From assembly GCF_013167455.1 (NCBI RefSeq), contig NZ_CP038328.1: a stretch of 64,000 bases of DNA; one strand, given 5' to 3'. Position numbers: made by a program. This document shows, piece after piece, positions 28,201-31,200 of this stretch. This stretch comes from Escherichia coli O157:H7 (GTDB taxonomy: Bacteria; Pseudomonadota; Gammaproteobacteria; Enterobacterales; Enterobacteriaceae). Numbering within the stretch: position 1 is the stretch's first letter; each line of letters opens with the position of its first letter.

Positions 28201-31200
28201 AGCTCCAGTAGCCCTTTCGGGGGCGGATGAGTGACTCATAGACACCTCTGATACTCGTTTCGATGTCTGCCACCTTAGTGTCTGTAGCTAAAGGCAATTT
28301 GATGTAAATCAAACGATAAGATAACTTTATCTATCATTGATATTTATCATTACCCATAGTGAGTACAGTGATTTCATAAAAATTATGAGATTTTTCACGG
28401 TGCTGTAAAATCCCTACCCTTACCGATGTAAAGCTACTAACCACACGGCAAATAAGGAGTAACTCTTTCCGGGTATGGGTATACTTCAGCCAATAGCCGA
28501 GAATACTGCCATTCCAGAATGTATCGTCACATTCATTAAGGTTATTGCTCATTTAAAGCCTGAAGGAAGAGGTTTACATGCTTAAACGTTGTCTCTCTCC
28601 GCTCACCCTGGTTAATCAGGTTGCGCTTATTGTGTTGCTTTCTACTGCTATTGGACTGGCAGGGATGGCGGTTTCTGGCTGGCTGGTGCAAGGCGTTCAG
28701 GGCAGCGCCCATGCGATCAACAAAGCGGGATCGCTGCGCATGCAAAGTTACCGTCTGTTGGCAGCAGTGCCATTAAGCGAGAAAGACAAGCCCTTAATTA
28801 AAGAGATGGAACAAACGGCATTTAGCGCCGAGTTGACTCGAGCAGCAGAACGAGACGGACAACTGGCGCAATTACAGGGTTTACAAGATTACTGGCGTAA
28901 TGAACTCATCCCTGCACTGATGCGTGCACAAAACCGCGAAACGGTGTCAGCGGATGTCAGCCAGTTTGTTGCCGGGCTTGATCAGCTGGTATCTGGTTTT
29001 GACCGCACCACGGAAATGCGCATTGAGACAGTGGTACTGGTCCATCGGGTAATGGCGGTATTTATGGCACTTTTACTGGTGTTCACTATTATCTGGTTGC
29101 GGGCGCGACTGCTACAACCGTGGCGGCAACTGCTGGCAATGGCGAGTGCCGTCAGCCATCGCGATTTTACCCAACGCGCAAACATCAGCGGGCGCAACGA
29201 AATGGCGATGCTTGGAACTGCGTTGAACAATATGTCTGCAGAACTGGCCGAAAGTTATGCCGTACTTGAGCAGCGGGTTCAGGAGAAAACCGCCGGGCTG
29301 GAGCATAAAAATCAGATCCTCTCTTTTTTATGGCAGGCTAACCGCCGTTTGCATTCCCGCGCCCCGCTGTGTGAACGCCTGTCACCTGTACTCAACGGCT
29401 TACAGAATTTAACCCTGCTACGTGATATCGAACTGCGGGTGTATGACACTGATGATGAAGAGAATCATCAGGAGTTTACCTGCCAGCCAGATATGACTTG
29501 TGATGATAAAGGCTGCCAGCTCTGCCCGCGCGGCGTATTACCCGTTGGTGATCGCGGCACGACCCTGAAGTGGCGGCTGGCTGACTCTCATACGCAGTAC
29601 GGTATTTTGCTGGCGACCCTACCGCAGGGGCGTCATCTTAGCCATGATCAACAACAACTGGTGGATACCCTGGTTGAACAACTCACCGCCACGCTGGCGC
29701 TGGATCGGCATCAGGAACGTCAGCAACAGTTGATCGTGATGGAAGAGCGTGCCACCATTGCGCGCGAACTGCATGATTCTATTGCCCAATCTCTCTCTTG
29801 CATGAAGATGCAGGTGAGTTGTTTACAGATGCAGGGCGATGCGCTGCCAGAAAGCAGCCGCGAACTGTTAAGTCAGATCCGTAACGAACTGAATGCATCC
29901 TGGGCGCAGTTGCGTGAATTGCTCACCACATTCCGCTTGCAGCTCACCGAGCCTGGATTACGTCCGGCGCTGGAGGCGAGTTGCGAAGAGTACAGCGCCA
30001 AATTTGGCTTCCCGGTGAAGCTGGATTATCAATTGCCGCCTCGTCTGGTGCCTTCGCATCAGGCAATCCACTTGTTGCAAATTGCCCGTGAGGCATTAAG
30101 TAACGCCCTCAAACATTCGCAAGCGAGTGAGGTCGTGGTGACGGTGGCGCAAAACGATAATCAGGTCAAACTGACCGTCCAGGATAACGGCTGCGGCGTG
30201 CCTGAAAATGCCATCCGCAGCAATCACTACGGCATGATAATAATGCGCGACCGTGCGCAAAGTTTACGAGGCGATTGCCGCGTCCGCCGTCGTGAATCAG
30301 GTGGCACCGAAGTGGTGGTCACCTTTATTCCCGAAAAAACTTTCACAGACGTCCAAGGAGATACCCATGAGTAATCAGGAACCGGCTACTATCCTGCTGA
30401 TTGACGATCACCCGATGCTGCGAACTGGCGTAAAACAGCTTATCAGTATGGCACCAGATATCACCGTGGTTGGCGAAGCGAGTAATGGCGAACAGGGTAT
30501 TGAACTGGCGGAATCTCTTGATCCCGATCTGATCCTGTTAGATCTCAATATGCCCGGCATGAACGGTCTGGAAACGCTGGATAAACTGCGCGAAAAGTCC
30601 CTCTCAGGGCGCATTGTGGTATTCAGCGTCTCTAACCATGAAGAAGATGTGGTCACCGCACTGAAACGCGGCGCGGATGGCTATCTGTTAAAAGATATGG
30701 AACCGGAAGATCTGCTGAAAGCATTGCATCAGGCAGCTGCTGGCGAAATGGTATTAAGCGAAGCATTAACGCCTGTTCTGGCCGCCAGCTTGCGCGCTAA
30801 CCGTGCCACGACTGAGCGCGATGTTAACCAGTTAACCCCACGCGAGCGCGATATTCTCAAGCTGATTGCCCAGGGTTTGCCGAACAAGATGATTGCCCGC
30901 CGCCTGGACATCACCGAAAGCACAGTAAAAGTGCACGTCAAGCACATGCTGAAGAAAATGAAGCTCAAGTCTCGCGTGGAAGCAGCGGTATGGGTGCATC
31001 AGGAGCGCATTTTCTGATTACGGTTCCCAGCGCAGTTCGTCGTTTGACAATGCGTCGAACGGTTCGACAAGCGTTAGCGTGATCTCATTGGAGGAGACAC
31101 GCTGCCCCTGGTTATCTTCCACCACCACCGACAATCGCCAGTGATTGCTCGCCCCTTCCCCGTTCTGCCAGTCAGGCATGATCAGCGTCCAGCCCTCCGC

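Follow-up and report, generated by a model that had tools for sequence, protein, structure and literature searches.

The window analysed here is a 64,000-nucleotide stretch of the genome of Escherichia coli O157:H7 (RefSeq assembly GCF_013167455.1, contig NZ_CP038328.1). It contains narX (28578–30374) and, on the plus strand, narL (30367–31017; 216 residues), the start of which overlaps the end of narX by 8 nt; the narL boundaries agree between our list of open reading frames and the RefSeq annotations of an identical O157:H7 record and of K-12. Facing narL on the minus strand is ychO (31018–32412), which encodes the inverse autotransporter invasin YchO, a protein of 464 residues when read from the annotated TTG start at 32412; an alternative in-frame ATG at 32448 would give a product of 476 residues. 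The plus-strand letters at positions 31010–31020 are ttttc TGA TTA, so that the narL stop (TGA, 31015–31017) stands beside that of ychO (31018–31020; TAA, appearing on the plus strand as TTA) with no intergenic base and no overlap. An earlier note on this DNA had claimed that the two convergent stops abut and that there is no space for separate terminators between them. The sequence bears out the first claim, with narL ending at 31017 and ychO at 31018, and the second holds as well, there being 0 bases between the genes. Identical boundaries are given in the RefSeq/PGAP annotations of E. coli O157:H7, K-12 W3110 and MG1655; the O157:H7 record is 100% identical to the window, and in MG1655 the coordinates are 1275179–1275829 (minus strand) for narL and 1273784–1275178 (plus strand) for ychO.

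We set this junction in a sample of 19 convergent pairs of coding sequences, drawn from annotated stretches of E. coli DNA totalling approximately 150 kb. The gaps in this sample lie between 28 and 315 nt, save for two pairs with no gap at all, ychO–narL and cueR–ybbJ; the zero-gap convergent layout is uncommon but recurrent in E. coli. Of 62 Enterobacterales species in which ychO is convergent to narL, 50 have a gap between −4 and +6 nt. It is exactly 0 in 12 species and 1–6 nt in 15, and a 4-nt overlap of the stop codons (YTAR) is present in 23; of the remainder, nine have gaps of 7–46 nt and in three the ychO frame extends 48–54 nt into narL. Tail-to-tail overlaps of the YTAR form (TTAA, TTAG, CTAA, CTAG) are known from surveys of overlapping genes in prokaryotes. 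Such overlaps share bases between the two stops, whereas in E. coli the stops are merely adjacent (TGA|TTA), one step away from the overlapping form. The tight narL–ychO junction is thus ancient and conserved in evolution. The ychN–chaC pair had been considered as a control for junction drift and was dropped, as no more than 11 loci could be used, several of them with inserted genes; the annotation samples were used instead.

On neither strand of the E. coli junction did pattern scanning and folding reveal a canonical intrinsic terminator, and the covariance models of Rfam 15 gave no match at E ≤ 1 across 30200–32700. The pattern scan returned four terminator-like matches in the region, compared with 1.7 ± 1.2 expected. 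Neither pattern scanning nor folding found a convincing terminator for the ychO transcript inside narL. The sole terminator-like match there, a weak hairpin with a short T-run on the minus (ychO-sense) strand at 30933–30949, was rejected: it folds with −7.8 kcal/mol (z = −0.8) and 46 of 200 shuffled sequences fold equally well.

Published data bear directly on what happens to narXL transcription beyond the junction. Adams et al. (2021; PMC7815308, Supplementary file 2) reported a bicyclomycin-sensitive region of Rho termination on the narXL strand at MG1655 position 1,274,961 (minus strand), antisense to ychO and 218 nt past the narL stop. The reads upstream and downstream of this position number 101 and 6 without bicyclomycin and 649 and 408 with it, and the Rho score is 10.58 (p = 5.07e-14; PMC7815308). 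When mapped to the window through the MG1655 annotation, the peak score lies at approximately 31225–31245 (about 31235) on the plus strand, a position that is coarse since the scores refer to 800-nt windows, and the narXL-strand counts in this dataset are low (101 reads per 800 nt). The Term-seq tables of the same study hold no other entry between MG1655 1,274,900 and 1,276,099. The earlier note had also held that each transcript must read into the other gene. This premise holds too, given the 0-nt gap, and read-through from narL into ychO is supported by the Rho-region data; in the opposite direction, ychO transcripts would run on into antisense narL, where Rho or collision with an opposing polymerase is the likely stop because no terminator signal is visible in narL.

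The layout of the two genes is real, old, ordinary and largely known already. The modest new detail lies between the narL stop and the published Rho region and consists of a stem-loop followed by a C-rich, G-poor tract. The tract occupies 31092–31198 on the plus strand and was recognized from its base composition in the narXL-sense RNA. Its best 78-nt window, at 31097, contains 34 C and 13 G, a C/G ratio of 2.6 that places it in the top 0.25% of all 78-nt windows in the 64 kb, although some 67 comparable regions occur on the two strands, with one in roughly every 2 kb of strand. Untranslated RNA that is rich in C and poor in G thus lies ahead of the stop point, as expected of a rut site; taken alone, the composition is consistent with a candidate rut and is not diagnostic of one.

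The stem-loop, TTAGCGTGATCTC-ATTGGAG-GAGACACGCTG, is located at 31074–31104 on the plus strand, 57–87 nt past the narL stop, within the ychO codons for Q-R-V-S-S-N-E-I-T-L. Its predicted folding energy is −16.8 kcal/mol (z = −1.5 against dinucleotide shuffles), and the ychO strand can form it about as readily. An intrinsic terminator would carry a U-tract directly after a GC-rich stem-loop; in E. coli there is no U-tract, the letters after the stem being CCCCUGGUUAUCUU. About half of the other species have 5–7 T within a 12-nt hairpin tail, as in ACCTTTTTCATC. A lenient scan pointed to intrinsic termination in Salmonella or E. albertii, but the terminator scanner made no call at the hairpin on the narL-sense strand of S. 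arizonae or on the ychO-sense strand of E. albertii, and we treat termination of this kind as a possibility only.

The hairpin recurs in most of the 62 species, and the question is whether it has been maintained for its own sake or follows from the protein that it encodes. The second case forms part of a neutral account, in which the spacer was lost long ago, generic Rho surveillance stops both transcripts and the hairpin is a by-product of the YchO peptide motif with no role for narXL. Several observations agree with this account. The conserved peptide QRVSSNEITL dictates much of the inverted repeat. Sequences recoded to preserve the peptide still fold with approximately −11 to −13 kcal/mol, compared with −15 kcal/mol observed; the z-score against dinucleotide shuffles is only −1.5, and synonymous recoding over a broad window is not significant (z between about −0.5 and −0.9). 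Antisense windows rich in C are frequent. Neither the Term-seq tables of PMC7815308 nor the SMRT-Cappable-seq supplements, in which narXL is weakly expressed, place a discrete 3′ end of narXL at the hairpin, and the occurrence of a second zero-gap pair, cueR–ybbJ, in so small a sample indicates that such junctions are tolerated.

Other features of the hairpin are harder to reconcile with a by-product. The wobble positions in the stem are strongly skewed (GAG to GAA, 40 to 3; Thr as ACG in 34 of 43), whereas the four TCN codons for the loop serine are used evenly. Across the alignment 79.4% of cells are paired, compared with 74.3% in shuffles, and 20 further pair types occur, compared with 13.9 ± 1.6; none of 500 shuffles reaches either value, a significance that is overstated since the species are phylogenetically related, and the covariation also exceeds that of every slid-register control. 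Recoding centred on the motif gives a z-score of about −2, which is in the top 2–4% of ychO windows, and across 19 genera the hairpin windows have a median rank between the 8th and 12th percentiles among all ychO windows. The asymmetry between G·U and A·C pairs shows no strand preference: the hairpin pairs equally well on both strands (79.4% compared with 77.8% paired), and selection may have acted on either.

The fate of the hairpin where ychO has been lost is also informative. In E. albertii about 1270 bp of ychO have been deleted and the last 144 nt or so are kept. Within this non-coding remnant the hairpin is intact, with 31 of 31 positions identical, while the flank has decayed, differing at 15 of 56 positions (Fisher p = 0.0008, from a single genome). 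Among the lineages that have lost ychO, E. albertii alone was found to have a hairpin remnant. A GC hairpin was seen by eye after the narL stop in at least Dickeya (L059 and L064), Hafnia (L073) and one further ychO-less species (L071), and the hairpin scan scored L064, L071 and L073. Weighing the wobble skew, the covariation, the rank of the hairpin windows and the E. albertii remnant against the points listed above, we regard the neutral account as a possible explanation but a distinctly less probable one than a function in the narXL transcript, for which the stem-loop is a candidate 3′-end hairpin, either protective or terminating.

In our view, the reading that best accommodates these data is that narL and ychO form a compact tail-to-tail pair of ancient standing and that narXL carries a 3′ module, a stem-loop followed by a rut site, with the Rho stop inside ychO; we put its probability at slightly better than even (roughly 0.55). 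Since the spacer is absent, the narXL mRNA would have its 3′ untranslated region encoded antisense to the last 90–220 nt of ychO. Past the narL stop, the untranslated RNA would form the stem-loop (+57 to +87) and then expose the C-rich, G-poor stretch (+75 to +180), on which Rho could load, halting RNA polymerase inside ychO after approximately 200 nt. As in other E. coli transcripts that end through Rho, 3′ exonucleases may then trim the RNA back to the stem-loop, leaving a stable narXL 3′ end. In species with post-stem codons of the form ...CC-UUUUUCAU, the same hairpin may act as an intrinsic terminator.

A bolder form of this proposal is that the last 90–220 nt or so of ychO serve two purposes, with one strand encoding the YchO C-terminus and the opposite strand a narXL 3′ UTR module of stem-loop and rut which has been kept across the Enterobacteriaceae and in E. 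albertii after the deletion of ychO, so that NarL dosage would depend on ychO sequence and the expression of YchO would be coupled to transcription of narXL. We put this forward with considerable reserve, as rather doubtful when taken in full; any effect on the levels of YchO or NarL is our extrapolation from the layout.

The equal pairing of the hairpin on both strands could also suit a both-strand inverted repeat that positions head-on collisions between RNA polymerases and so terminates both transcripts, as has been proposed for convergent E. coli pairs; programmed collisions of this type reportedly cannot do without a stem-loop in the nascent RNA (bioRxiv 10.1101/2022.10.23.513370). Termination of ychO at this site would, however, yield non-stop mRNAs, as the hairpin lies 57–87 nt upstream of the ychO stop. 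It has no flanking A-tract and U-tract pair in E. coli, and the signal published for the locus depends on Rho (PMC7815308), with narXL-strand reads so few that collisions may be rare. A bidirectional intrinsic terminator likewise finds little to match it here, with no intergenic DNA, the hairpin placed within ychO and no symmetry of A- and U-tracts in E. coli. We consider the collision mechanism very improbable.

The earlier note had further suggested antisense interference between the two genes. As an excludon, the pair would have overlapping 3′ ends that give rise to double-stranded RNA or polymerase collisions, with narXL expression lowering ychO and vice versa, and nitrate sensing would be linked to an adhesin. 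The genes are adjacent and tail to tail on opposite strands, and ychO–narL is among the 165 convergent excludons listed for MG1655 by ExcludonFinder (Sanmartin et al., NAR 2025; PMC12288877), being present in at least 50% of 58 RNA-seq samples. RNA from the narXL strand spans at least about 200 nt antisense to ychO (PMC7815308), synteny and the tight junction are conserved, and higher synteny is reported for excludon pairs generally (PMC12288877). The listing is nonetheless weak evidence of regulation because a 0-nt gap satisfies the coverage criterion almost automatically, and narXL-strand reads are again few (PMC7815308). We found no sign of reciprocal expression, RNase III cleavage or double-stranded RNA at narL–ychO; p19-based validation of double-stranded RNA was not feasible for convergent excludons generally (PMC12288877). 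No result that we found or computed supports interference between NarL and YchO, and we judge regulation of this kind to be unlikely.

These findings do not overturn the current understanding of the locus, which offers a tidy and conserved example of a candidate terminator and 3′-end module that sits within the coding region of the gene facing it; were the excludon-type regulation true, it would connect nitrate sensing to an adhesin. There is also a practical consequence. No 3′ flank belongs to narL alone, so that deletion of ychO touches the narXL 3′ UTR, and a clean deletion replaces this UTR, the hairpin and the Rho site with a cassette, which could alter NarL levels. For this reason ychO phenotypes need complementation in trans. 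In the published ΔychO mutant of avian pathogenic E. coli (APEC), the arm of the reverse primer extends precisely to the TGA of narL; the mutant was complemented in that study, which mentions neither the nar genes nor nitrate.

Comparison with related systems helps to place the junction. The cueR–ybbJ pair of E. coli K-12 likewise has exactly 0 intergenic nucleotides (MG1655 514400/514401) and is also on the excludon list (PMC12288877), but its genes are unrelated to narL and ychO. With the convergent excludons of MG1655 the pair shares neighbouring convergent genes and overlapping 3′ transcription, although E. coli excludons are separated on average by 95 intergenic nt (PMC12288877) compared with 0 here, and a functional excludon is defined by mutual exclusion and RNase III processing, whereas ychO–narL is known in this context from its listing and layout. 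The programmed collision pairs of Wang, Watters, Ju and Liu (bioRxiv 10.1101/2022.10.23.513370) are similarly convergent with a stem-loop possible in both nascent RNAs; at narL–ychO, however, the element lies inside one gene and not between the two, A/U-tract symmetry is lacking and the documented dependence is on Rho. There is also a resemblance to the Rho-dependent 3′ ends described by Dar & Sorek (NAR 2018; PMC6061677), which have a stable stem-loop without a U-tract and a rut site immediately downstream. The narXL region has the same succession of a stem-loop without a U-tract, a C-rich, G-poor stretch and, further downstream, a bicyclomycin-sensitive drop in coverage. It differs from those 3′ ends in lying wholly within the coding region of the gene opposite, and the putative narXL module is accordingly also constrained by the protein sequence of YchO.

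In the window, narL (30367–31017, plus strand) ends with a TGA at 31015–31017 and the 464-residue reading frame of ychO on the minus strand ends with a TAA at 31018–31020 (TTA on the plus strand). The two stop codons adjoin in the sequence ...cgc att ttc TGA TTA cgg ttc cca..., with no intergenic bases and no overlap. The interval 30600–31500 is 100% identical to the O157:H7 record with which it was compared, NZ_AP018488.1. RefSeq draws the same boundaries for O157:H7, W3110 and MG1655 (in MG1655, ychO 1273784..1275178 on the plus strand and narL 1275179..1275829 on the minus strand). 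Sequence, reading frames and annotation thus confirm the abutment described in the earlier note, and its statement that zero intergenic bases leave no room for separate terminators is correct. The note had added that each transcript must read into the partner gene; this structural reasoning is right, and the narL-to-ychO direction is documented in published data.

We note three further features of the region. The narX stop (narX, 28578–30374) overlaps the narL start by 8 nt (30367–30374); overlap of neighbouring genes in a two-component operon is the usual mark of translational coupling. The ychO start is ambiguous (32410–32448, minus strand), with the RefSeq TTG at 32412 giving 464 residues and an in-frame ATG at 32448 giving 476; the forward primer of a deletion study in APEC covers both sides of the corresponding site. 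The periplasmic trehalase gene treA is annotated as a frameshifted pseudogene in NZ_AP018488.1 (1584980–1586664; window approximately 58377–60061, plus strand).

The zero-gap layout is a minority arrangement in E. coli, although not a unique one. We read 19 convergent CDS pairs from the annotation of some 150 kb of E. coli, comprising the greater part of the window's region and two arbitrary MG1655 stretches; 17 are separated by 28–315 nt and two abut exactly, ychO–narL and cueR–ybbJ. The latter pair (L085, the MG1655 stretch, 13993–14859; MG1655 cueR 513993–514400, plus strand; ybbJ 514401–514859, minus strand) also has no intergenic bases, and is likewise among the published excludons, convergent pairs with overlapping antisense transcripts (PMC12288877).

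Locating the stops of narL and the ychO homologue in 80 Enterobacterales species anchored on NarL indicates that the tight junction extends from Escherichia, Salmonella, Klebsiella and Enterobacter to Serratia, Rouxiella and Mangrovibacter. In the 62 species with ychO convergent to narL, the stops overlap by 4 nt (CTAA/CTAG/TTAA type) in 23, abut in 12 and lie 1–6 nt apart in 15 and 7–46 nt apart in nine; in the remaining three the ychO frame extends 48–54 nt into narL. The C-terminal tail of YchO is variable among the surveyed species. The three long frames (L016; L054, Shimwellia pseudoproteus; L055, Entomohabitans teleogrylli) have no stop near the junction and would be true CDS–CDS overlaps, about 17 codons long, if the annotation does not choose otherwise. 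The only large gaps in the sample, 43–46 nt, occur in three Kluyvera loci (L022, L035 and L037). Between their stops these loci carry an inserted long inverted repeat, TAATTGTCGTGACAGG...GTCACGCACAATTA, which could represent a hairpin terminator of its own or a small insertion. The Kluyvera genes also keep the coding hairpin discussed below (L035, −21.3, and L037, −20.5 kcal/mol, among the most stable found; L022, −13.5 kcal/mol). In Klebsiella sp. BIGb0407 (L057:3640–3950), which has no ychO, the post-narL sequence, TTTTTTAACC..., possibly encodes another convergent ORF, with a stop that has TTAA in common with the narL stop; if real, this ORF would suggest that tight junctions with narL are not peculiar to ychO. 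Inspection of printed sequences from species without ychO indicates a GC hairpin soon past the narL stop in at least Dickeya (L059, L064), L071 and Hafnia (L073), and those of L064, L071 and L073 were also scored by the hairpin scan.

Where narXL transcripts end was addressed by scans and published data. A pattern scan for canonical intrinsic terminators found none near the junction on either strand (four weak matches in 1.5 kb, 1.7 ± 1.2 expected; none at the junction), and an Rfam search of the junction region gave no match. Adams et al. (2021; PMC7815308, Supplementary file 2) report a Rho termination region at MG1655 1,274,961 on the minus strand, classed as antisense to ychO (score 10.58, p = 5e-14), which maps through the MG1655 annotation to 218 nt beyond the narL stop (window approximately 31235). 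No discrete 3′ end near the junction is present in their curated Term-seq tables, nor was a narXL 3′ end found there in the SMRT-Cappable-seq supplements. On the narXL-sense (plus) strand, 31092–31198 is rich in C and poor in G; its best 78 nt (34 C, 13 G) belong to the top 0.25% of windows across the 64 kb, although regions of that strength recur roughly every 2 kb of strand.

In our view, with a probability of roughly 0.55, the 3′ UTR of narXL would be encoded antisense within the 3′ coding region of ychO, where Rho would terminate the transcript, and a conserved stem-loop at 31074–31104 would be the likely mature 3′ end. The antisense interference between NarL and YchO proposed in the earlier note, a true excludon-type cross-regulation, is improbable. 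Sanmartin et al. (2025; PMC12288877) include the pair in their list of 165 convergent excludons, which were seen in 50% or more of 58 MG1655 RNA-seq samples, and transcription does overlap, but we found nothing further in support. The excludon criterion is coverage above 50% of the gene mean beyond the CDS end, which a 0-nt gap meets almost automatically, so that the listing shows overlap and not regulation; in the same study dsRNA validation was unsuccessful for convergent pairs.

The stem-loop (TTAGCGTGATCTC / ATTGGAG / GAGACACGCTG, narXL-sense) falls in the ychO codons for Q-R-V-S-S-N-E-I-T-L, where the 3′ end of the gene is best conserved. The 55 nt around it (31066–31120) fold at −16.8 kcal/mol (z = −1.5 against shuffles). 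Synonymous recoding over broad windows gives z of about −0.5 to −0.9, the peptide alone dictating much of the inverted repeat, and neutral compaction of the two genes with a coincidental hairpin is a possible, though less likely, explanation. Other results speak for a constraint on the structure beyond that of coding. Recoding of 16-codon windows centred on the motif gives z of about −2 in E. coli, and across the 19 of 20 sampled genera having a motif window the median rank among all ychO windows is the 8th (ychO-sense) or 12th (narL-sense) percentile. The surveyed species are related, which overstates the significance of these and the following statistics: stem wobble positions strongly favour the base that pairs (GAG 40 versus GAA 3 for Glu; Thr ACG 34/43; Val GTC 41/62; Gln CAG 59/62), TCT, TCG, TCA and TCC are used about equally for the loop serine, and on the alignment of the ychO 3′ end 79.4% of stem cells are paired (74.3% in shuffles), with 33 double-sided changes (7.8) and 20 further pair types (13.9 ± 1.6). 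None of 500 shuffles reached these values, all slid registers were clearly worse and one pair alternates U-A / U-G / C-G. The stem pairs alike on both strands (79.4% versus 77.8%), so neither is singled out as the one under selection. A collision-type bidirectional terminator (compare bioRxiv 2022.10.23.513370) is very unlikely because the hairpin sits upstream of the stop codon of ychO. Roughly half of the other species have ...ACC-TTTTTCATC as the narL-sense codons that follow the stem; there, action of the hairpin as an intrinsic terminator is only a possibility, since the strict scanner made no call for this type of site.

E. albertii NBRC 107761 has lost about 1270 bp of ychO in a deletion that begins 20 nt ahead of the start codon and reaches to 144 nt short of the stop. 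The remnant (L004:3652–3800, homologous to window 31018–31161) keeps the last 144 nt or so, in which the hairpin differs from E. coli at 0/31 positions and the flank between it and the narL stop at 15/56, nearly all non-synonymous (Fisher p = 0.0008, one genome); the C-rich stretch differs at 4/40 (hand count from the alignment). Retention without coding constraint in this one genome argues that the hairpin, perhaps with the C-rich tract, serves something besides YchO, the narXL 3′ end being the obvious candidate. No such remnant was found in the other ychO-less lineages of the sample. A 13-nt deletion in the remnant took out CTGGTTATCTTCC. On the ychO-sense strand each of the seven substitutions directly 3′ of the hairpin introduces a T (CUAAUGUUUGUUGUACUUUUC); this looks like a newly formed U-tract and could stop transcripts of the orphaned ychO promoter ahead of narL; the terminator scanner made no call at this site.

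Transcripts of ychO necessarily enter antisense narL. No terminator signal was found for the ychO-sense strand; the sole minus-strand scan match lies inside narL and is no more stable when folded than shuffled sequence, and we found no published 3′-end or Rho data for this strand. An intragenic σ54 binding site inside ychN (window approximately 32598–32951), which faces ychO from 405 nt upstream (ChIP site IA11, MG1655 1272586; PMC4591121), may be a ychO promoter.

Every annotation already shows the abutment, published tables contain the transcriptional overlap and the Rho region, and this kind of element is well known. What is new is small: the conservation of the tight junction across Enterobacterales, the covariation and codon evidence for the embedded stem-loop and the E. 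albertii remnant. There is a practical point for genetics, in that complete ychO deletions take away the entire narL 3′ flank. In the APEC ΔychO mutant, the phenotypes of which were complemented in trans, the homology arm of the reverse primer consists of the final 50 nt of narL including the TGA (PMC4787180; homologous to window 30968–31017), so the resistance cassette replaces the hairpin, C-rich tract and Rho region.

The favoured reading, a narXL 3′ end formed within ychO, has a precedent. According to Dar & Sorek (PMC6061677), Rho-dependent E. coli transcripts carry a stable stem-loop without a U-tract, a Rho utilization (rut) region directly downstream and then diffuse Rho termination; in their model PNPase and RNase II are kept from the mature 3′ end by the stem-loop. 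The narXL 3′ region resembles the ends described there in its stem-loop without a U-tract, its C-rich tract and its downstream Rho region.
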